From positions 2,127 through 66,126 of the forward strand of contig DAIRCW010000001.1 in NCBI GenBank assembly GCA_036796475.1: a stretch of 64,000 nt of DNA, given 5' to 3'. Below, in pieces: positions 1,967-38,174 of this stretch (positions are counted from its first letter, which is position 1; the number at the start of each line of letters is the position of its first letter). This DNA comes from Candidatus Acidiferrales bacterium. GTDB taxonomy: Bacteria > Acidobacteriota > Terriglobia > Acidiferrales > UBA7541. The notes beneath the pieces are model-generated. The model ran no database searches, was not told the origin of the DNA, and worked only from the letters and a program-made list of their open reading frames with translations. Both the position numbers and the translations under genes were made by a program.

Positions 1967-3148
1967 ATGGCGCGCGCTACCCGGAGAGTGATCCTCGGAA
2001 TACTCATCGCAATCGTGCTGGGGGGAATCGTTGCGTATGCGTTTTGGCCCTCGGCGATCTTGGTCGAGGCTGCAAAGGTCATCCGAGGGCCGTTGCAAGT
2101 GGCGGTAAATGAGGAAGGGCAGACGCGAGTTCATGATCGTTTTGTATTGTCTTCTCCGGTGGCGGGAAGGCTCATGCGCGTGAGCTTGGAGGATGGAGAT
2201 ACGGTTCAGAGAAACGAACTGGTGGCGCGAATCGAGCCGGTTCCGCTGAGCCAGCGGGAGCGGGAAGAGGTTTATGCGCGCGTGAAAGCGGCTGAGGCGG
2301 CGCTGCGCCAGGCGAGGGCTCGCGAAGCGCATGCGCGGGAAGATTTCGCGCAAGTTCAGAGAGACCGGAAGCGCGCCGAACAGCTGGCGAAATCGGGGGT
2401 GATTTCAGCGCAAGCTCTCGAGCAAACGAGGAACGCGGATATTACCGCTGGAGAAGAGCTGAGCGCGGCCGAATCAGGAGTGCAGGTTGCTGCTTCAGAA
2501 GAAAAAATTGCGCGTGCGGGCCTGGTTGGAATCGAGGCGAAGGCAGGCAGTCCTGCGCCACTGATTGAGCTGCGCTCGCCGCGTTCGAGCCGTGTGCTCC
2601 GTGTGCTTGAAAAAAGCGAGCGAGTTGTTCCCATGGGAACACCGATCCTGATTCTCGGCGACTCCGCGGACATCGAAATCGTTACTGAGGTGCTTTCGAC
2701 CGACGCCGTGAAGATTGCCGCAGGCGATGCTGTATTGGTGGATGGATGGGGAGGAGATCGTCCGCTTCGCGCTCGCGTGAGGCTGGTTGAGCCGTATGGC
2801 TTCACGAAAATATCGGCGCTCGGAGTGGAGGAACAGCGCGTCAACGTTATTTCGGATTTCCTCGACCGTAGCGCGGCGCTGGGCGATGGGTATCGGGTAG
2901 AAACTCACATTGTTATCTGGTCCGGGCAGAACGTGATGAAAGTGCCCATCAGCGCGATTTTCCGGCACGGACAGAGCTGGAGCGTTCATGTGATCGCGGG
3001 AAAACGTGCCGAATTGCGCGAGGTGGACGTGGGACATCGCAACGAAGCGGAAGCAGAGATTCAAAAGGGTTTGAGCGAAGGGGACCGAGTCATCGTGCAT
3101 CCGCCTTCGGAGTTACGCGCGGGAATGCGCGTGCGCTTTGATGAGTAG
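1967..3148 (+). CDS. HlyD-family membrane fusion / periplasmic adaptor protein
   Basis: N-terminal TM anchor (VILGILIAIVLGGIVAYAF), a long charged coiled-coil stretch (AEAALRQARAREAHAREDFAQVQRDRKRAEQL) and a beta-rich C-terminus. Immediately follows the permease. Confidence 0.8.
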   Translation: MARATRRVILGILIAIVLGGIVAYAFWPSAILVEAAKVIRGPLQVAVNEEGQTRVHDRFVLSSPVAGRLMRVSLEDGDTVQRNELVARIEPVPLSQREREEVYARVKAAEAALRQARAREAHAREDFAQVQRDRKRAEQLAKSGVISAQALEQTRNADITAGEELSAAESGVQVAASEEKIARAGLVGIEAKAGSPAPLIELRSPRSSRVLRVLEKSERVVPMGTPILILGDSADIEIVTEVLSTDAVKIAAGDAVLVDGWGGDRPLRARVRLVEPYGFTKISALGVEEQRVNVISDFLDRSAALGDGYRVETHIVIWSGQNVMKVPISAIFRHGQSWSVHVIAGKRAELREVDVGHRNEAEAEIQKGLSEGDRVIVHPPSELRAGMRVRFDE

Positions 3149-3178
3149 AAGCGTCAGGATTTCAGGAACGAAGGAAAG

Positions 3179-3802
3179 GTGATGTGGCCAGTCCTCCTTC
3201 TTTTTGCCATTGTTTTCCTGCTGAACCTCATTCCGGCTTTTGCGCCGCCGACGTGGATGGTCTTCTCATACCTCGGTTTCAGGAGCGCCTCAAACAATGT
3301 TGCATGGCTGGCACTTATCGGGGCCGCTGCAGCTACGCTGGGCAGAATCACACTCGCAAAATTGTCGCGCGTAATTATCCGGCAGAGATTCCTCCGCGAG
3401 TCCACGAAACAAAACATTGATGCCATACGGGAGAAGCTTCAGGGGAAACGCAAGCTGACATTCGGCGTGTTTCTTTTCTACGCTTTTTCGCCGCTTCCCT
3501 CGAATTATCTGTTCATCGCCTATGGCCTAACGGCCATGGAACTGAAACTTATCGCGCTGCCGTTTTTCCTAGGGCGCTCGGTGAGCTATGCATTTTGGGG
3601 GCTGACGTCGTCGGCCGTGGCGCACCGCGTCGCTATGGATTCAAAATGGGCGGCATCGTACCTCGGCGTTTGGTTCGTTATTTCGCAGATTTTGCTGCTG
3701 TATGCCATTTATCTGTTTACGCGAATCGACTGGCGGTTGCTATTCGCGGAACGAAAACTGAGGCTGATCGCGCGGGGTTCAAAACTGCGGCATGTGTCGT
3801 GA
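3179..3802 (+). CDS. small polytopic membrane protein, possibly DedA/VTT (YqaA-like)
   Basis: 207 aa with about 5 hydrophobic helices. The N-terminal LLNLIPAFAPPTWMV motif resembles VTT-domain proteins. The start is either GTG 3179 or ATG 3182, preceded by AAGGAAAGG. Confidence 0.45.
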   Translation: MMWPVLLLFAIVFLLNLIPAFAPPTWMVFSYLGFRSASNNVAWLALIGAAAATLGRITLAKLSRVIIRQRFLRESTKQNIDAIREKLQGKRKLTFGVFLFYAFSPLPSNYLFIAYGLTAMELKLIALPFFLGRSVSYAFWGLTSSAVAHRVAMDSKWAASYLGVWFVISQILLLYAIYLFTRIDWRLLFAERKLRLIARGSKLRHVS

Positions 3803-3809
3803 GTGCGTT

Positions 3810-4688
3810 TTATTGCCCCTTGAGGAAGGACGCGAGAGTAAGCCACAGCAGCACGAATCCGGCGACGATGACAGCCGTGCCAATGGCACGCGCCAATATT
3901 TTCAGCCTTGATGATGGCGCGGTTGCTTGCACGGCAGGCAATTGACCTCTCTCCAGCAGACGTTGATATTCAAGAGGGTGTTTTTCCTTTAGTTCTTTTT
4001 CGGTCTGGCGGCCCGTGAAGATGACCAGGTCCATGGGAAAACTTCCCGGACGCAAGTGAGTATTAAAGAAATGGATGGCGAAAATGAACCAGACGGCGAG
4101 GAGGGCTTCTTCTCCGTGGATCAAGAGTGCAATGTTGAGCCATGAGCCAGGGATGATCCTTGCGACGAATGGCGCAAACCACATGGCGTATCCGGATATG
4201 CCGATTATGGCCATGCCCCAGAAAACCGCCCAGTAATCGAATTTCTCCCAATAGGCAAAACGATCAAATTTGGGCCGCGGGCCGAGCTATAAGAACCAAC
4301 GAACATGGCGGTAGAGATCCTGAAAATCTTTTGGATTGGGTACCATGGAATTCGGACCCCAGAAGAGCCCTTTCTGCTTCTTGAGAAATGTACTGCGGGC
4401 GATATCGCCGAGATGAATCAGAAAGGCCACACTCAGAACTACGGCGCAGAATTTGTGGAAGAACAGAATCGCGCTGAATCCGCCGACTGCATGAGCGAAT
4501 CCCGCAGCCCAGCGGGCATGGCTGAAGCGAAGAACCATTCCAGTCAAAGCCAGCCCAAGAAAAGTCGCCATGATGGTGGCGTGCAGATAGCGCTGGCCCG
4601 AGGAGAAGCGCCGGTAGTATTGAGCAGCTGAACCGGCCGAGCTTATTCCAGACTGGTTCAAATCTTCGCTAATCGCCGCTTTGGACAT
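3810..4688 (-). pseudogene. FdnI/HydC-type (formate dehydrogenase gamma-like) cytochrome b, interrupted by one in-frame TAG at 4287-4289
   Basis: ORFs 4287..4766 and 3810..4214 are in the same frame. Translation across the stop reads ...[40 protein letters not shown]..., so conserved-looking TM sequence continues through the stop. The likely start is ATG 4688, with GAGGAAAGG 7 nt upstream. Confidence 0.7.
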
Positions 4689-5904
4689 GCGCGCCTTTCC
4701 TCGAGTGCTCAAATGCAGAGCGGATAAACCACAAAATTGTGTGCAGGCCGAAAAATCCCAGAACAACGAGCAGCAGCAGATTCATAAACCGAGCAGCAAA
4801 ATAAAGCGCAGGAAAGGATTTCCGGTCGCGCGGACTGGCGTGAGGATGGTAGGTGACAAAGCTCGCGCTCGCGCCGTTGTGGCATTGACCGCAAGTCGCC
4901 GTCAGATTGGAGGCTGCTACCGAGGAGTGCGGATCCGAAGCGGGAAGGATGGTGTGTTCGCGATGGCAATTCCAACAATGGGCGGTGGCGGCGTACCCAA
5001 GCGCTGAGACTTGCGCGTGAAAGGTGTCCTGATAGGTGGCAAACCGCGCCTGATGGCAGCTTCCGCAAGTTGCGGTTGTCTTCTCCTGCCACTCACCGGA
5101 CTGCACGTTAGAGATCTGGTGTGCGGTGTGGCAATCACTGCAAACCGGCGCTCCGGCATTTCCGGCCTTCAACGTCAGTCCATGAATTCCCGCGAAATAA
5201 GCGGCTTTGGGCCCTGCGTGGCAGGAGCCGCAGGTGTCCGGAATGTTGGCTCGATAGGTCCGGCTCTGCGGATTGGTGCGGCTCAGGATTTTGTGAGTGC
5301 CGTGGCAACTGGAGCAGGAAGCTGCCACGAGCAAGCCGTCTTTGGACAAGGCGAAACCGTGGATTGAATCCATGTACATCGAGTACACGTTGGGAAAACC
5401 GAACTTCTTGGCCATTTCGGGATTGCCATGGCAGGAGCCACAGGTTTTGGGGATGTTCAGCGCGAAAACGGGCGAAGCGGCGTCTTTTACCGGGACAATC
5501 GAGTGCGGATCGCCATGGCAGCCCAAACAAGGAATCGCGCTGGCTTTGGCATGAACGCTTGTGGACACATCCGCAGACTCATCGGCGTGGCACGTCGCGC
5601 AATTGACCGCCGCAGGATGATCCGGATGAGGATAGCCTTTGATGTCGGCATGGCAATCTGTACAACTCAAACTGCCGTGGACGCTCTTGGCCTGTTTCTG
5701 GCCATCCACGAAGACGCTGTGCCCTGCTTGATTTTTCAAATCCTGCTGCCCGTGACAGGCAAGGCAGTCGTCATTCTTCTGCGCCAGGGCAGGTGTGGCA
5801 GCGAGGAACACTGCCGCCGCGATGAACAGGCAATACGCGGGAGTGCCAGCTAGCAGGGCGCGAAAGAATCGAGAAGGAGGCCGAAGCTGGGGGCGAAAGT
5901 TCAT
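4669..5904 (-). CDS. undecaheme c-type cytochrome with signal peptide and C-terminal TM helix
   Basis: Eleven CXXCH motifs: CLACH, CTDCH, CATCH, CLGCH, CGSCH, CSSCH, CGSCH, CSDCH, CGSCH, CWNCH, CGQCH. N-terminal signal-like segment ending ALAQ. C-terminal helix FMNLLLLVVLGFFGLHTILWFI. ATGA overlap with the upstream gene. Confidence 0.9.
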   Translation of the reverse strand: MNFRPQLRPPSRFFRALLAGTPAYCLFIAAAVFLAATPALAQKNDDCLACHGQQDLKNQAGHSVFVDGQKQAKSVHGSLSCTDCHADIKGYPHPDHPAAVNCATCHADESADVSTSVHAKASAIPCLGCHGDPHSIVPVKDAASPVFALNIPKTCGSCHGNPEMAKKFGFPNVYSMYMDSIHGFALSKDGLLVAASCSSCHGTHKILSRTNPQSRTYRANIPDTCGSCHAGPKAAYFAGIHGLTLKAGNAGAPVCSDCHTAHQISNVQSGEWQEKTTATCGSCHQARFATYQDTFHAQVSALGYAATAHCWNCHREHTILPASDPHSSVAASNLTATCGQCHNGASASFVTYHPHASPRDRKSFPALYFAARFMNLLLLVVLGFFGLHTILWFIRSAFEHSRKGAHVQSGD

Positions 5905-7352
5905 TTAATTCCGAGCTCCGTCAGTACCTTCGGATTGTGTTCATCCACAGCGATGAGGTCATGGCAGGCATCGCAATCGTTGGGAATGGTCTTCCCGTCC
6001 GCAGAGGTGTGGCTGCCATCGTGGCAACGGAAGCATCCCGGCCAATCGGTGTGACCGATATTATTGGGATAAGTGCCCCAAGTGACGTTCATCGAGGGGA
6101 ATACATTGCGCAGGTAAATTCCCTGAATGGCGGTGATGGCCTGGTCGAGCTTTGATTTCTGAGAAGCCACAACCTGCGGATAATTCTTCTCGTAAAAATC
6201 TCGAAGAGCGGTTGCGATTTCTGTTCTGGCGCTCTCGCGATCTGAATAGGTTTTCTTTAGGACTTCCAGTGCTTCCTTCTTGATGAACGGAAGATCCGCG
6301 CTGATAAACGATTCGGAAATCGCTTGGTCCAAGGCAGACTCCGGCATTTGGAATGTATGAGTCGGGCGGTTATGGCAATCCATGCAATCCATGACGCGAT
6401 GCTCGCCCTTCGCGAGTTGGTCAGGCGTAGGTTTCGTGTCCGTGGAGGTGAATACGGTCGCCTTGCCTGAGGGATCGGTATAGGTGACCTGCCCAATCAT
6501 CTGGCGCTTTGCATCTGTGGCGATGTAGGTGATTCGCACACCGGGATCGAGGTGGTATCCATGAATGCCGACGCTGCCGGTGGCGCTTGTTCCGCCAACC
6601 TTCATGAGCAATACGGTGGTTGAGGATGTATTGGCGGCATCGTCTTTGTAATGGTTGCGAACCAGGAGGACGTTACCTAAGAATCTCTGAGGCCAGTGGC
6701 ACTGTTCGCAAGTGGCGCGCGCGGGGCGCAACTGCTCGACCGGTGAGGGTATGGGGCGCGGATAATCATGGAAGGCAACGGCAAAGACCTGGCGGGTGCC
6801 TGAGACTTTGGAACGCACGAACCAGGATGCTCCCGGTCCGATGTGACATTCGACACAAGCAACACGGGAATGCGGCGAATGCTGGTAGGCCGTGAATTCC
6901 GGCTGCATCACGGTGTGACACGTCTGGCCGCAGAATTGGACGGAATCCATGTACTGTGTGCCTTTGTAAGCAGCGGTGGTGAAGATAACGATATTCAGGA
7001 AAGTGGCCATGGTGACGAGGACGGCGGTTCTTCGGAGGAACGGGTCGGCGAAGTCAACGCGCGGATATTCGGACGGAAGTTCGCCACGGCGGCGCAGGTG
7101 GCTTCGCCGGAGGAGAGCGCCGATGGGCATCAAGATGAGTCCCAGGATGAAAACCGAAGGCAGAGCGAGCAGAAAAATGATGCCTGAATAGGGGTAGGTG
7201 CTGACTCCGCCGCCGAGGAGAATCTCGAAAATCCAATAGAGGATCATGGTGACGGCGGCAGTGGTGGTGAGCACGACGCCGATTAACGAGATGGTGTTTC
7301 GGCCAAGATAGGCGAGAGGACGGAACCAGGCAGCCAGCCGTTCAGAGGGCAT
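5901..7352 (-). CDS. membrane-anchored multiheme c-type cytochrome with NapC/NirT-like region (ImcH-like)
   Basis: Three N-terminal TM helices. NapC/NirT-like block FCGQTCHTVMQPEFTAYQHSPHSRVACVECHIG. Five canonical CXXCH motifs (CVECH, CEQCH, CMDCH, CFRCH, CDACH) plus one CX3CH (CGQTCH). Confidence 0.85.
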   Translation of the reverse strand: MPSERLAAWFRPLAYLGRNTISLIGVVLTTTAAVTMILYWIFEILLGGGVSTYPYSGIIFLLALPSVFILGLILMPIGALLRRSHLRRRGELPSEYPRVDFADPFLRRTAVLVTMATFLNIVIFTTAAYKGTQYMDSVQFCGQTCHTVMQPEFTAYQHSPHSRVACVECHIGPGASWFVRSKVSGTRQVFAVAFHDYPRPIPSPVEQLRPARATCEQCHWPQRFLGNVLLVRNHYKDDAANTSSTTVLLMKVGGTSATGSVGIHGYHLDPGVRITYIATDAKRQMIGQVTYTDPSGKATVFTSTDTKPTPDQLAKGEHRVMDCMDCHNRPTHTFQMPESALDQAISESFISADLPFIKKEALEVLKKTYSDRESARTEIATALRDFYEKNYPQVVASQKSKLDQAITAIQGIYLRNVFPSMNVTWGTYPNNIGHTDWPGCFRCHDGSHTSADGKTIPNDCDACHDLIAVDEHNPKVLTELGIK

Positions 7353-7648
7353 GCGCGCACGCTTCCTTAGTCGCTCCCGGAAGGGCAGGTCTACAGAGGA
7401 GCACGTTATCTAGTTCAAAAGTTACGCGAATTCTAAACGCGTTCATTGTATTGTGAAAGCAACAAAAATGGCGCGTGTAGCGGATCCTGCAAAGCGCTGC
7501 TGCACGGGCAAACTAATTCGCATTCGGCCGTCACTTGAAATTTTCAACAGTTATTGGCCAAGCAGCGGTGATTTACGTCACATCGGGAGGTAATGTTTTC
7601 GCGCAAACTGTGGGTGCAATTACGGGAGTATCCACAGGAGGTCCAGCC

Positions 7649-7819
7649 ATGGTTTCGTCCAACGCAGTGCAATCTCCGCAGAAGAAAACGGCGAAACACG
7701 AGGAAATCTGCGCGGTGTGCGGCAAGCCTTCGCGGGAAACCATCTGCCACGCTTGCGCGGACAAAGTGCAGGCGGAAGCTGTGTCGCGAAAGAAGCGGCA
7801 GAACAAAGGCGAAGAGTAA
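7649..7819 (+). CDS. small hypothetical zinc-ribbon protein (56 aa)
   Basis: ATG 7649 is preceded by GGAGG at about -8. Paired CxxC...CxxC (CAVCGK...CHAC) and a basic tail. The longer TTG 7535 start has no support. Confidence 0.3.
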   Translation: MVSSNAVQSPQKKTAKHEEICAVCGKPSRETICHACADKVQAEAVSRKKRQNKGEE

Positions 7820-35249: not shown

Positions 35250-37793
35250 ATGAACGACTCAAGCTCCAGGCGGAACGGCGGGGTGAAGCCCATGAGAACT
35301 CTGGTAAGAAGTTGCATGATTGGCTGGCTTGCTCTGGTGGTAGCGCTGTTCTTTACGACCAGGACGGGCGCCCAGCAATCGAGCGGGCAGAGCAGCGGGA
35401 CCGAGCAAACTTCAAGTGGCATGCAGTCCGGCGACTATAACGTCCACCAAAGCATCGAATTCGGCTATCGCGACAGCATGATTGACGGCAGCATCGATAA
35501 TTACGACACATTCGAGAATCTTGGTTCCGGCGTGCGACTCTTCGACTACACGCTGGACATGCGTTCGCGCGATCACAAAGGATTTTTCTTTGACAATCTG
35601 AGCTTCAGCAACTTCGGATACGGCGGCGATCCCAACGATGTCAGCAGGCTGCAATTTGACAAAAACAAATGGTACGAGTTCCGCGCGCTCTTCCGGCGCG
35701 ACAAGAATTTCTGGAATTACAACCTGCTGGCGAATCCGCTGAATCCGGCGAGTTCCGTTCCCGCTTTGCCGATTGTAGATTCGCCGCATTCGATGGATCT
35801 GGTGCGGAGGATGCAGGATTACGACTTGACGCTCTTGCCGCAATCGCGGCTGCGCTTCCGCCTCGGATATTCGCACAATGTGAACGAAGGCCCGGGATTG
35901 ACGACGCTGGATGGCGGAACGGAGCCTGTACTGGCGGAGAATTTTCGTTACACAACAAACGCGTACCGCATGGGCGCGGATTTCCGTTTTCTGCCAAAGA
36001 CGACCATTTCGTTCGATGAATTGTTGACCTATTTCAAGCAGGACAGCACCGTAACGGATCAGAATTTTCCCTTCGTGCTGTCGGATGGCACGCCCGCGGA
36101 TTTGGGAATCATCTTCAACACGGCCGGAAAAACGCCGTGCACGGCACCGATCCTGGACAGCACGACCAATCCGCCGACGGCCAATGCGAACTGCAATGGC
36201 TACCTCGCCTACAGTCGCGTGGGCCGGCCGCGCTCCTCTTTTCCGACGGAGCGGCTATCGTTTCAATCGAATTACATCAAGAACCTGGAAATGTCGGGCG
36301 GCATCAGCTATAGCAGCGACAAAAATTCCACGCCGGACTTCAATGAGTTTATCAATGGCTGGACGAGCCGCACGGCGAGCAGGGGCGGGACGGTGAGTGG
36401 CCCGTCGCAAGCGAAACGCGTGGCGGTAGACGCTAATTTCGCGGCGGATTACCAGATCAACGATAAGCTGAGCGTAGTGGATGAATTCCGCTATTACAAC
36501 TGGCGCATTCCGTCGATGTGGTTTACCGCGGATACGAATTTCTTCGGAACACCGCCGGCGGTGGCCGGACAAGCAGGTTTGTCGCTGCCGATTGCGCAGG
36601 TAAACGTGTCAAATTTCGCGGCGGTCTGCGGCGCGTCGCCGTATAACGGGCCGAATTGCCCGCAGCACGCGTCTGGCTCTCCGGCGGACGTGCTGGACGA
36701 ATTTGTTTCGCAATTCCTGGGACAGAATCTGCGTTCGAACACGCTGGAATTGGAGTACGCATTTACGCACCGGGTGAGAGCTCGGATCGGCTACGAGTAC
36801 ACGGCGCGCACGATTGCCGACTTCAGCGCGACATTCGATACTGCTGAGGCATATTTCCCAGGAGGTGCAACAGGAACGGCGGCGAATGACTTTCTTGCGG
36901 CGCGCGGCGATTGCGCCATGGTCAGTGGAGTGCTTCCCGCCGGATGCGCACTCGATCCAGCGACCGGAATTATTACGGAAGGAACGCCCACCTCTCCCGT
37001 GCCGGACGCGGCCAACGATACGGCGAGAAACATCACCGACATTCACGAGCATGCGCTGCTGGCGGGAGTATCCGCGAATCCAACAGACAAACTGAGGCTG
37101 AGCGCGGATTTTACATTCGGTTTCAACGACAAGTCGTTTACCCGCATCAGCCCGCGGAACTTGCAGATTTACAACATCCAGGCTACCTATACACCGATAT
37201 CGTGGGCCAGCATCGGCGCGTCACTGAACATTCACGAGAACCGCGATAATGTGCTGACCGTGAACAATCTGGGGCATGACCGGACTTTTGGGTTGGTCAC
37301 CACTTTGGCGCCTAATTCGCGCGTGTGGGGCGACCTCGGATACGATTACACGAACGTCTACACGCAGGCGAACGTTTGTTTTGCTGAGCCAGGGTCGGCG
37401 GTATTCACCACGCCTTGCACCATAGCCGGCGAGGAGCAACCGACACTGGAAGCCCTTTCGTTTTACAAGAGCACGGATCACTTCGTCTATGGGAATTTGA
37501 TGTGGAAGCCAGTGAAGCGGGTTACTGGAATGGTCGGATACGCCGGGAGCATTGTGCGCGGGAGTACGCTCTTCCTTAATCCGCGGGCGCCCACCGGGCC
37601 GCTGGAATTCAACTACATCAAGCCGAGCGTTAGCCTGGCCATTGAGATCTACAAGGACGTGACGTACAAGACAGCGTGGAATTATTACGGGTACAACGAC
37701 AAAGGCGTGGTGAATCCAGCGGGATTGGCGCCGTTGCCGCTGCAGGATTTCAACGGGAATAACGTGACGTTCTCTTTGCGCTATGCGTTTTAG
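35250..37793 (+). CDS. large outer-membrane beta-barrel protein, MtrB/PioB/MtoB-like (decaheme-associated porin)
   Basis: GGAG RBS before ATG 35250, with signal peptide ...ALFFTTRTGAQQ. ~847 aa, no heme motifs, Gly/aromatic-rich alternating pattern, terminal ...FSLRYAF. Directly downstream of the decaheme gene. Confidence 0.75.
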   Translation: MNDSSSRRNGGVKPMRTLVRSCMIGWLALVVALFFTTRTGAQQSSGQSSGTEQTSSGMQSGDYNVHQSIEFGYRDSMIDGSIDNYDTFENLGSGVRLFDYTLDMRSRDHKGFFFDNLSFSNFGYGGDPNDVSRLQFDKNKWYEFRALFRRDKNFWNYNLLANPLNPASSVPALPIVDSPHSMDLVRRMQDYDLTLLPQSRLRFRLGYSHNVNEGPGLTTLDGGTEPVLAENFRYTTNAYRMGADFRFLPKTTISFDELLTYFKQDSTVTDQNFPFVLSDGTPADLGIIFNTAGKTPCTAPILDSTTNPPTANANCNGYLAYSRVGRPRSSFPTERLSFQSNYIKNLEMSGGISYSSDKNSTPDFNEFINGWTSRTASRGGTVSGPSQAKRVAVDANFAADYQINDKLSVVDEFRYYNWRIPSMWFTADTNFFGTPPAVAGQAGLSLPIAQVNVSNFAAVCGASPYNGPNCPQHASGSPADVLDEFVSQFLGQNLRSNTLELEYAFTHRVRARIGYEYTARTIADFSATFDTAEAYFPGGATGTAANDFLAARGDCAMVSGVLPAGCALDPATGIITEGTPTSPVPDAANDTARNITDIHEHALLAGVSANPTDKLRLSADFTFGFNDKSFTRISPRNLQIYNIQATYTPISWASIGASLNIHENRDNVLTVNNLGHDRTFGLVTTLAPNSRVWGDLGYDYTNVYTQANVCFAEPGSAVFTTPCTIAGEEQPTLEALSFYKSTDHFVYGNLMWKPVKRVTGMVGYAGSIVRGSTLFLNPRAPTGPLEFNYIKPSVSLAIEIYKDVTYKTAWNYYGYNDKGVVNPAGLAPLPLQDFNGNNVTFSLRYAF

Positions 37794-37835: not shown

Positions 37836-38174
37836 ATGAATGGCATGATAATTCGAGTTGGGCAGCGGCTGCTTTTCGCCTGCGCGCTCGCGTTTTTTAT
37901 TCATAGTCCGGCCCGAGCGAATGATTCGGCGAGTCTCTTCAAGACCAAATGCGCCATGTGTCATGCCGCAGACGGCAGCGGCGATAGCGTGATGGGGAAA
38001 AAGATGGGCGCGAAAGATTTGCGTTCCGCGGAAATTCAGAAGAAGAGCGACGCGGAACTGAACAAGCTCATCAGTGATGGCGTGCCGCCCAAAATGCCTG
38101 CCTACAAGGGAAAACTGAGCGACGCCGAGATCAAAGGCCTCGTTACCTACATCCGCGAGCTCAAGAGTAAGTAA
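37836..38174 (+). CDS. secreted monoheme class I cytochrome c
   Basis: GGAGG RBS, signal peptide, a single CAMCH, and a distal Met region PPKMPAY...SDAEIKGLVTYI. Confidence 0.85.
   Translation: MNGMIIRVGQRLLFACALAFFIHSPARANDSASLFKTKCAMCHAADGSGDSVMGKKMGAKDLRSAEIQKKSDAELNKLISDGVPPKMPAYKGKLSDAEIKGLVTYIRELKSK

Follow-up and report, generated by a model that had tools for sequence, protein, structure and literature searches.

An ImcH-family cytochrome gene adjoins a split CbcL/MtoC-type cytochrome b/c module at a locus of a Candidatus Acidiferrales bacterium

The locus described here lies in a stretch of 64,000 nt from a Candidatus Acidiferrales bacterium (GCA_036796475.1, contig DAIRCW010000001.1, positions 2,127-66,126 of the forward strand). 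This whole stretch is referred to as the window, and coordinates follow its own numbering, in which position 1 is the first letter. Open reading frame (ORF) calls and their translations place three co-directional genes on the minus strand between positions 3810 and 7352, in agreement with a preliminary description that was made from the sequence alone (Table 1). Gene 1 encodes a membrane cytochrome c of the ImcH family, gene 2 a periplasmic multiheme cytochrome c and gene 3 a cytochrome b. The preliminary description had the genes joined throughout by ATGA junctions. This is true of genes 1 and 2, but genes 2 and 3 overlap by 20 nt: the ATG of gene 3 at 4688, which is preceded by the Shine-Dalgarno-like sequence AGGAAAGG, lies upstream of the TAG stop codon of gene 2 at 4671-4669. 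Gene 3 ends with a TAA codon at 3812-3810. No internal terminator signal above chance was found within the three genes, and from the overlaps we infer that they are co-transcribed as one operon.

The gene 1 protein has three N-terminal hydrophobic helices, at about residues 20-38, 57-75 and 110-128 by hydropathy; an AlphaFold model of moderate confidence (predicted local distance difference test score, pLDDT, 70.9) places them at 20-45, 54-88 and 104-135. A cytoplasmic location would suit the arginine-rich loop at 76-109. The NapC/NirT family (PF03264) matches residues 110-196 with 36.1 bits against a cut-off of 24.1. Six heme-binding motifs are present, an atypical CX3CH motif (CGQTCH, residues 141-146) directly after the third helix and CX2CH motifs at 166, 215, 323, 440 and 460. 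Hydropathy, the PF03264 match and the motif scan agree with the three N-terminal transmembrane helices, the NapC/NirT-like block and the six heme motifs of the preliminary description. ImcH proteins are defined by three transmembrane helices and an atypical CX3CH first motif, followed by six more CX2CH motifs in Geobacter and by 5-9 in other phyla (PMC4251993; PMC6295460). Of these features, as far as sequence can test them, gene 1 lacks only the seventh heme; it has six hemes because the C-terminal extension that carries heme 7 is absent.

The spacing of the heme motifs is 24/49/108/117/20 in gene 1 and 24/49/106/117/20/38 in the Geobacter ImcH, GSU3259 (Table S3 of PMC6295460). The same table lists two acidobacterial ImcH homologs with six motifs, Acid_0432 of S. 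usitatus (482 amino acids) and ACP_0476 of A. capsulatum (479 amino acids). The first three motif positions of gene 1 are exactly those of Acid_0432 and lie within one residue of those of ACP_0476. In ImcH the pocket of heme 1 contains Gln179 as the distal ligand, together with Lys173, Tyr188 and Glu127 (bioRxiv 10.1101/2023.05.03.539133). The counterparts of Lys173, Gln179 and Tyr188 in gene 1 are K182, Q188 and Y197, shifted by +9 residues and at the same offsets from the heme-1 histidine, while Asp136 replaces Glu127. K182 and Q188 are invariant in a 14-sequence alignment of the family (34-78% identity); within the first motif and its preceding residue, F140, C141, C145 and H146 do not vary among 14 family members and G142 hardly does.

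Gene 1 is 47% identical over 183 residues (E = 6e-58) to a fragment of G. sulfurreducens ImcH, of about 190 amino acids and transcribed imperfectly from a machine-read figure (Fig. S2 of bioRxiv 10.1101/2023.05.03.539133). This value falls inside the range of 31.5-49% published for GSU3259 and its homologs in other phyla. On motif spacing, the conserved lysine and glutamine and the identity to this fragment, we assign the predicted protein to the ImcH family, the family whose architecture had been recognised earlier. It is a large family, with 3584 clusters (50% identity) at E <= 1e-3 and 880 at E <= 1e-30. A cluster look-up also found in it a relative from a metagenome-assembled genome (MAG) of the Deltaproteobacteria (P0181).

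Gene 2 has a signal-peptide-like N-terminus, 11 CXXCH motifs and a C-terminal transmembrane helix (residues 376-394) that contains His388; motif scan and hydropathy bear out the earlier account of an anchored 11-heme periplasmic cytochrome. Its Pfam and NCBIfam matches are to generic multiheme families. The closest solved structure is PDB 28pb_A ('Cytochrome c', 278 amino acids), which matches residues 45-165 with E = 3.8e-9. It was considered as the periplasmic domain of CbcL and rejected, because its first two motifs are spaced by 33 residues against 23 in CbcL.

Gene 3 encodes five hydrophobic helices and matches PF01292 with 32.8 bits against a cut-off of 30.1. A single-sequence search of the PDB with gene 3 gave only noise and a family profile was needed to reach FdnI; for the profile of 14 stand-alone relatives, E. 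coli FdnI (1kqf_C) is the sole PDB match. Residues H36, H78, H191 and H206 of gene 3, all invariant, align with the four heme ligands of FdnI, which we take to be His18, His57, His155 and His169. The identification of gene 3 as an FdnI/HydC-type diheme cytochrome b is upheld by the PF01292 match and this alignment, but its reading frame is broken by a TAG codon in the window.

The anchor helix of gene 2 and the five helices of gene 3 make six transmembrane helices, spaced by 70/38/81/32/82 residues compared with 66/48/78/34/78 in GSU0274, the CbcL of Geobacter. CbcL is described as having six transmembrane helices with one histidine per helix in helices 1 to 3 and two in the fifth. In genes 2 and 3 the histidines are H388 in helix 1, H36 in helix 2, H78 and H92 in helix 3, and H191 and H206 in helix 5, the pattern described for CbcL except for one extra histidine in helix 3; the third and fifth helices of gene 3 itself carry none of them. 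The two genes are collinear with single fused proteins of 922-959 amino acids and 19 hemes in three related loci (L035, L037 and L088). Residues 46-396 of gene 2 align to 286-647 of the 941-residue L035 protein (39% identity, E = 3e-81) and residues 22-286 of gene 3 to 668-935 (43% identity, E ~1e-80), the split point falling in the cytoplasmic linker after the first helix. The CXXCH spacing of these fused proteins is that of SbA3_800005 (931 amino acids, 19 hemes, six transmembrane helices), which has been listed as an acidobacterial homolog of CbcL/MtoC/MtrH (Table S2 of PMC6295460). Periplasmic hemes number 9 in Geobacter CbcL and 9-19 in published homologs. CbcL holds its c and b domains in one polypeptide, whereas two genes encode them here. 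As genes 2 and 3 are collinear with fusions that match the layout of a published acidobacterial CbcL/MtoC homolog, the earlier view of them as a split CbcL holds at the level of architecture, that is, of the six helices, the histidine pattern and the collinear fusions.

Two distant groups of cytochrome b were found beside imcH. Type A, with 229-660 bits to gene 3, takes in gene 3, the remaining stand-alone b genes and the fusions with 19 hemes; type B, with 40-115 bits, takes in those with 13 or 9 hemes. Since the two types are distant paralogs, the term 'CbcL-like' spans at least two lineages. The fused proteins of 707 and 718 amino acids in two relatives (L003 and L004) were considered as fused orthologs of genes 2 and 3 and rejected, their b domains being distant paralogs (62-75 bits).

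The division into two polypeptides, the c-then-b order at this locus and the histidine in the anchor helix of the c subunit would also suit a complex of the CbcBA type. In published descriptions CbcA is a multiheme c subunit whose C-terminal helix carries a b-heme ligand, and CbcB is a separate diheme cytochrome b. We nevertheless think it unlikely that genes 2 and 3 encode such a complex rather than a split CbcL. CbcB has four transmembrane helices and three histidines, the fourth ligand coming from CbcA, whereas the five-helix product of gene 3 supplies each of the four FdnI-type ligands itself. Orthologs of genes 2 and 3 exist as single fused proteins with six transmembrane helices, and no gene for a BccR-like sigma-54 regulator is adjacent.

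More conventional roles were also weighed: for gene 1, that of an NrfH-type protein serving a nitrite or hydroxylamine reductase, and for gene 3, that of a gamma subunit belonging to a formate dehydrogenase or hydrogenase. By sequence, NrfH is the sole PDB relative of gene 1 (E = 1.5e-5); it is also its sole solved relative by fold, being the top Foldseek match to the gene 1 model (2vr0_F, probability 1.0). There is weak hidden Markov model similarity of gene 1 to NrfH (TIGR03153, 52.4 bits) and of gene 3 to FdnI (TIGR01583, E = 1.3e-11, 44.9 bits), but these scores are far under the curated cut-offs of 134.2 and 115.85. The TorC and NapC equivalog models likewise score far under their cut-offs on gene 1, and gene 3 does not reach the cut-off of TIGR02125. 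No nrfA or hao gene lies near gene 1, the 64-kb window contains no pentaheme NrfA-like ORF, nor do the heme-motif ORFs that were listed from related loci include one. No gene for a catalytic respiratory enzyme was found in the flanks of the operon in the window. Downstream are genes for a small membrane protein, an HlyD-like protein and a MacB-type transporter, an efflux system of the ATP-binding cassette type; upstream are tRNA-Leu, a membrane protein and isoamylase. The only other multiheme gene in the window encodes an MtrA-family decaheme cytochrome. In the flanks of related loci, for which heme-motif ORFs and homologs of six queries were listed, no catalytic subunit gene was seen. This gene context effectively refutes the conventional roles, which we regard as very improbable. 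The preliminary description had named an NrfH clade linked to nitrite or hydroxylamine reductase for gene 1, and a formate dehydrogenase or hydrogenase operon for gene 3, as placements that would tell against it, and neither was found.

The TAG codon in gene 3 is codon 134 and lies in the cytoplasmic loop between its second and third helices. Because of it, the ORF finder splits the gene as assembled into two ORFs, 4287-4766 and 3810-4214. At this codon TGG, encoding tryptophan, stands in four contigs of about 99% identity to the operon, which differ from it at 32-42 of 3543 nt and show no insertions or deletions; they encode an intact protein of 292 amino acids. The intact allele is recorded from 216 contigs. 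The truncated product of 133 amino acids is recorded from one NCBI assembly (a 76-kb contig) and from the Logan assemblies of two sequencing runs. In SRR2093878 (Logan) the TAG is present in a sequence identical to the window over 2006 nt; in SRR23012430 (Logan) it is present although 20 of 4135 sites differ from the window. As the codon recurs in these two other runs, one of them of a different haplotype, a sequencing or assembly error is ruled out, and the TAG is a real minority allele that segregates in natural populations. Recoding was ruled out as well: TAG ends gene 2 and 17 of the 54 long ORFs in the window, and is an ordinary stop codon in this genome.

There is no in-frame start codon between the TAG and Met159 of gene 3, and unless read-through occurs a strongly conserved segment and part of the third helix are lost from the product. 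Position 134 is variable in the family, with tryptophan in the close clade and glycine in most other members. A cytosine after a stop codon makes a weak termination context. The TAG stands in the context TTA-TAG-CTC, with C as the fourth base, and one may speculate that some read-through product is functional. Between the two TAG haplotypes there are 8 synonymous codon changes and no non-synonymous ones. This was rejected as a sign of continued selection, since the variants are shared with TGG haplotypes and the pattern is thus one of recombination or standing polymorphism. Among the strains that are about 99% identical, the cytochrome b gene makes up a quarter of the operon length and holds 14-25 of its 32-42 substitutions, a mosaic pattern that suggests recombination. 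Because of the nonsense codon, the module formed by genes 2 and 3 is probably inactive or strongly reduced in this strain; the ImcH-type route would be intact.

Three further genes of interest lie 27 kb from the operon on the opposite strand, and their counterparts in relatives are contiguous with imcH. The decaheme cytochrome matches TIGR03508 with 260.9 bits against a cut-off of 192.2 and is 57% identical to the decaheme cytochrome directly upstream of the imcH cluster in L003. The protein of about 830 amino acids, the putative partner of the decaheme cytochrome, is 44% identical to an 872-residue protein between the decaheme and monoheme cytochromes of L003. It matched no Pfam or NCBIfam family and may adopt a beta-barrel fold. 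The monoheme protein is a class-I cytochrome of the c6/c551-like kind, 45% identical to the one directly upstream of imcH in L001 and L003. No remnant of a monoheme cytochrome c gene was found upstream of gene 1. Judged by these identities, the distal trio is orthologous to the imcH-linked genes of relatives.

Table 1. Features of the operon and of the distal cytochrome genes (window coordinates).
Feature	Position	Strand	Basis
Gene 1, ImcH-family NapC/NirT-type membrane hexaheme cytochrome c, 483 amino acids	5901-7352	minus	ORF, PF03264, motifs, transmembrane helices
Gene 2, 11-heme periplasmic c-type cytochrome, 411 amino acids, C-terminal transmembrane anchor	4669-5904	minus	ORF, motifs, hydropathy
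Gene 3, FdnI/HydC-type diheme cytochrome b, five transmembrane helices, 292 codons, TAG-interrupted	3810-4688	minus	PF01292, family profile
In-frame TAG nonsense codon of gene 3, codon 134, Trp134 to stop	4287-4289	minus	TGG in close relatives
Match to a sigma-70-like promoter, some 80 nt upstream of gene 1	7430-7457	minus	10/12 matches, weak evidence
DmsE/MtrA-family periplasmic decaheme cytochrome c, 315 amino acids	34277-35224	plus	TIGR03508
Putative outer-membrane protein, about 830 amino acids, ends ...RYAF, start codon uncertain	35292-37793	plus	Homology to the L003 872-residue protein
Monoheme class-I cytochrome c, 112 amino acids, signal peptide	37836-38174	plus	Homology to the L001/L003 monoheme cytochrome

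Chance alone would yield 2.6 promoter-like sites such as the one in Table 1, and 4 were counted. An ORF of 56 amino acids (7652-7819, plus strand) with two CxxC pairs (CAVCGKPSRETICHAC) lies in the gap of 640 nt that separates gene 1 from tRNA-Leu. It is divergent from the operon, is gene-called in all four close relatives (L005-L008) and may encode a small zinc-ribbon protein.

At least 582 loci of the gene 1 family were found among GTDB species representatives. We surveyed the best 80 of these, all of them Acidobacteriota-type MAGs with 46-67% identity to gene 1, by calling ORFs and labelling them by phmmer, the queries being the window proteins plus the monoheme cytochrome c of L001. A multiheme-c/cytochrome-b module lies beside imcH on the same strand in 50 of the 80. 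It is fused and downstream in 15, fused and upstream in 13, split and upstream in 12 and split and downstream in 3; the remaining 7 have both a split type A and a fused type B module downstream of imcH. In one further locus the module is convergent with imcH, and 30 of the 80 have imcH without an adjacent cytochrome b module. An MtrA-like decaheme cytochrome and a large outer-membrane protein occur in the imcH flank in 31/80; in 36/80 imcH has a monoheme cytochrome c immediately upstream. The same trio of genes as in the operon is present in L001, L002 and L005-L010. In L003, L004, L011, L013 and others the decaheme, outer-membrane and monoheme genes stand immediately upstream of imcH, the order in relatives being decaheme cytochrome, outer-membrane protein, monoheme cytochrome c, NapC/NirT-type protein and cytochrome b/c protein. 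The co-occurrence of the two architectures had been called unusual, which is so relative to Geobacter only; it is the commonest arrangement in Acidobacteriota. The co-conservation in relatives on which the preliminary description had staked its claim was found, both in the trio and in the 50 loci with an adjacent module.

Among other homologs, the 7-heme P0127 has a fused b/c gene of 667 amino acids that overlaps its start, and a Deltaproteobacteria homolog that is close to the ImcH of Geobacter has no more than a triheme c7 in its vicinity. Six loci (L019, L021, L022, L029, L030 and L034) contain, at about 9.4-14.7 kb in each, imcH followed by a 19-heme cytochrome c, a stand-alone type A cytochrome b and a 13-heme type B fusion, which makes three quinone-linked modules in a row. 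Because gene 2 aligns to them twice, their 19-heme cytochromes seem to be internally duplicated forms of the 11-heme gene 2 type. In L004 two regulator genes of the Crp/FNR family (1-2208) stand immediately upstream of the five-gene cytochrome cluster, a hint that it is controlled in response to redox state or oxygen, and in L001 a phage-type integrase (2641-3852) is near the cluster; neither is found beside the operon in the window.

We propose, with a probability of roughly 70%, that the three genes form one operon for two quinol:periplasmic-cytochrome oxidoreductase modules of kinds known from extracellular respiration in Geobacter. The locus is a real envelope electron-transfer system built from known families. 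Observed here are the structure of the genes, their family features, their collinearity with fusions, the synteny and the nonsense allele; quinol oxidation, the side of each quinone site, the electron direction, the partners and co-transcription are inferred. In the first module, by analogy with NrfH and ImcH, gene 1 would oxidise menaquinol beside heme 1 at the periplasmic face, releasing protons to the periplasm and passing electrons along its six c-hemes. In the second, the cytochrome b of gene 3 would move electrons across the membrane between a quinone site near the cytoplasmic face and the 11-heme cytochrome c of gene 2, docked to the b subunit through its C-terminal helix, the CbcL/MtoC architecture made of two polypeptides. 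Domains of the FdnI type have their quinone site at the cytoplasmic face, apart from the periplasmic redox partner. Periplasmic cytochromes would receive electrons from both modules, or supply them, and may in turn connect to the decaheme cytochrome, the outer-membrane protein and the monoheme cytochrome c whose genes lie 27 kb off.

In ImcH the quinol site is placed at the periplasmic face next to heme 1 and the enzyme is described as electroneutral (bioRxiv 10.1101/2023.05.03.539133); for CbcL, proton release to the cytoplasm and a lower H+/e- ratio are implied (bioRxiv 10.1101/2022.08.31.506072). Given this opposite sidedness, the operon would give electrons two ways out of the quinone pool, one of high and one of low yield. 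Geobacter imcH and cbcL are both constitutively expressed and the acceptor potential selects which is used (bioRxiv 10.1101/2021.04.15.440034), so co-expression of the two would not be new biology. The acidobacterial linkage fits this logic of acceptor potential and needs no new mechanism.

The same sidedness, inferred in the literature (bioRxiv 10.1101/2022.08.31.506072; 10.1101/2023.05.03.539133), allows the two modules to be read as halves of one redox loop or supercomplex instead of parallel alternatives. The b module would then take electrons from a periplasmic or extracellular donor of low potential and reduce quinone with them at the cytoplasmic face, and the ImcH-type protein would re-oxidise the quinol at the periplasmic face to a higher-potential acceptor, with 2 H+ per 2 e-. 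The tight and ancient linkage, with overlapping genes in either order, is in keeping with such a coupling. Against it stand the 30 of 80 species that have imcH without an adjacent cytochrome b module, the independent function of ImcH and CbcL in Geobacter, and the persistence of the cytochrome b nonsense allele beside an intact imcH, from which it can be argued that ImcH is able to work alone. We hold the loop to be improbable. Little more than an outside chance is given to its stronger form, in which the conserved, translationally coupled pair is a dedicated quinone redox loop by which Acidobacteriota would conserve energy from electron transfer between two extracytoplasmic redox couples. The donor might be, for example, reduced humics or Fe(II) and the acceptor Mn(IV), Fe(III) or O2-linked cytochromes, and the nonsense allele would be an on/off variant; this elaboration shares the same low odds.

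A more serious alternative, though still clearly the less probable one, is that the same parts run in reverse. Electrons from extracellular Fe(II) or reduced humics would be taken up through the decaheme cytochrome and the outer-membrane protein in the manner of Mto. As part of this alternative they would pass to an MtoD-like monoheme cytochrome c and then to quinone, by way of the CbcL/MtoC-type module, the ImcH-type module or both, or to a terminal oxidase. The gene order of the relatives resembles that of the mtoA-mtoB-mtoD-cymA and mtoC clusters described in Fe(II) oxidisers, and homologs of CbcL/MtoC/MtrH have been proposed to be bidirectional (PMC6295460). The monoheme protein is c6/c551-like, and class-I cytochromes of this kind usually have a high potential. 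Conversely, ImcH homologs have so far been implicated in quinol oxidation only (PMC6295460), several Acidobacteria that bear ImcH, Geothrix and A. capsulatum among them, are Fe(III) reducers, and the monoheme gene is outside the operon in the window. Sequence alone does not settle the direction.

Several points weigh against our proposal of two quinol-oxidising modules. The class-I monoheme cytochrome and the MtrA/MtoA-like genes fit inward flow, as in Fe(II) oxidation, equally well, and electron direction is not readable from a sequence, from which transcription, heme loading and quinone use are predicted. In this genome the cytochrome b gene is broken and its coding sequence is not intact. 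Gene 1 is without the seventh heme of ImcH, although six motifs are within the published range for other phyla, and its structural model is only of moderate confidence. The assignment to CbcL rests on architecture and on a published list of homologs, and in many relatives, L003 and L004 among them, the 13- or 9-heme fusions beside imcH are only distantly paralogous to gene 3.

None of the component families is new. Homologs of ImcH (19 listed) and of CbcL (2 listed) in Acidobacteria were published in 2014 and 2018 (PMC4251993; PMC6295460). The genes for ImcH are known to be often associated with those of c-type cytochromes, and the cymA-mtrH-mtrABC genes of R. ferrireducens are a precedent for a NapC/NirT-family and a CbcL-type protein in one cluster (PMC6295460). 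In a literature search we found no description of an imcH-b/c (imcH-cbcL) operon as a phylum-wide arrangement, nor of the split b/c module, the two paralogous b/c types or the nonsense allele. The result is one of useful comparative genomics and is unsurprising to a specialist. Acidobacteriota are among the most abundant soil bacteria, and their capacity for extracellular electron transfer has mostly been inferred from single marker genes. In this phylum imcH is usually part of a cytochrome-rich cluster, which is a stronger, multi-gene marker of envelope-spanning electron transfer than imcH alone. The linkage suggests that two types of quinol oxidase, which Geobacter uses at different redox potentials, are passed on here as a single unit and are probably also expressed as one. 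The b/c forms that occur naturally, split and fused, and the stop-codon allele offer ready-made comparisons for studying how the modules work.

The closest known systems are each matched in part. NrfH (2j7a/2vr0) is matched by gene 1 over its third transmembrane helix and first hemes. NrfH, however, has one transmembrane helix and four hemes, uses CXXCHXM at heme 1 and is bound to NrfA. FdnI (1kqf chain C) is the only solved structure matched by the gene 3 profile, with its four heme-ligand histidines aligned, but gene 3 has no FdnG/FdnH partners, is partnered instead by a multiheme cytochrome c and has an extra C-terminal helix.

Gene 1 is like ImcH (GSU3259, Acid_0432 and ACP_0476) in its three N-terminal helices, the CX3CH motif next to the third of them, NapC/NirT homology, near-identical motif spacing and the lysine, glutamine and tyrosine kept around heme 1. 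Its length and six-motif layout are essentially those of the acidobacterial homologs. It differs from GSU3259 in having six hemes rather than seven and aspartate for Glu127, and, unlike Geobacter imcH, which is monocistronic (PMC4251993), it overlaps the next gene. Genes 2 and 3 share with CbcL/MtoC/MtrH a periplasmic multiheme c domain followed by six similarly spaced transmembrane helices with an FdnI-type b domain, whereas GSU0274 is a single polypeptide with 9 hemes rather than 11 and has no interrupting TAG. Their heme spacing resembles that of the acidobacterial and MtoC-type entries and not that of the Geobacter CbcL entry.

The CbcBA complex of G. sulfurreducens likewise has a separate, anchored multiheme c subunit with a histidine in its C-terminal helix and a separate diheme cytochrome b. 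CbcA, however, has 7 hemes to the 11 of gene 2, and the four-helix CbcB borrows from CbcA a ligand that gene 3, with five helices, supplies itself among its own four. The cbcBA genes belong to an operon regulated by sigma-54 and BccR; no regulator gene is present between tRNA-Leu and gene 1 or downstream of the operon, sigma-54 promoter motifs not having been searched for.

The window may also be compared with the Mtr and Mto conduits. The decaheme cytochrome passes TIGR03508, but its neighbour of about 830 amino acids, where a porin of the MtrB/PioB family is expected, is without a Pfam or NCBIfam match. In the cymA-cymA-mtrH-mtrABC genes of Rhodoferax ferrireducens and in the Mto clusters (PMC6295460) the NapC/NirT member is the tetraheme CymA, whereas here it is of the ImcH type with three transmembrane helices and six hemes; the phylum is Acidobacteriota, and in the window the genes are divided between two loci 27 kb apart. 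These systems bring together a NapC/NirT protein, a CbcL/MtrH-type b/c cytochrome, an MtrA-family decaheme cytochrome and an outer-membrane protein, to which the Mto clusters add a monoheme cytochrome c, and are a precedent for the clusters of L003, L004, L011, L013 and others.

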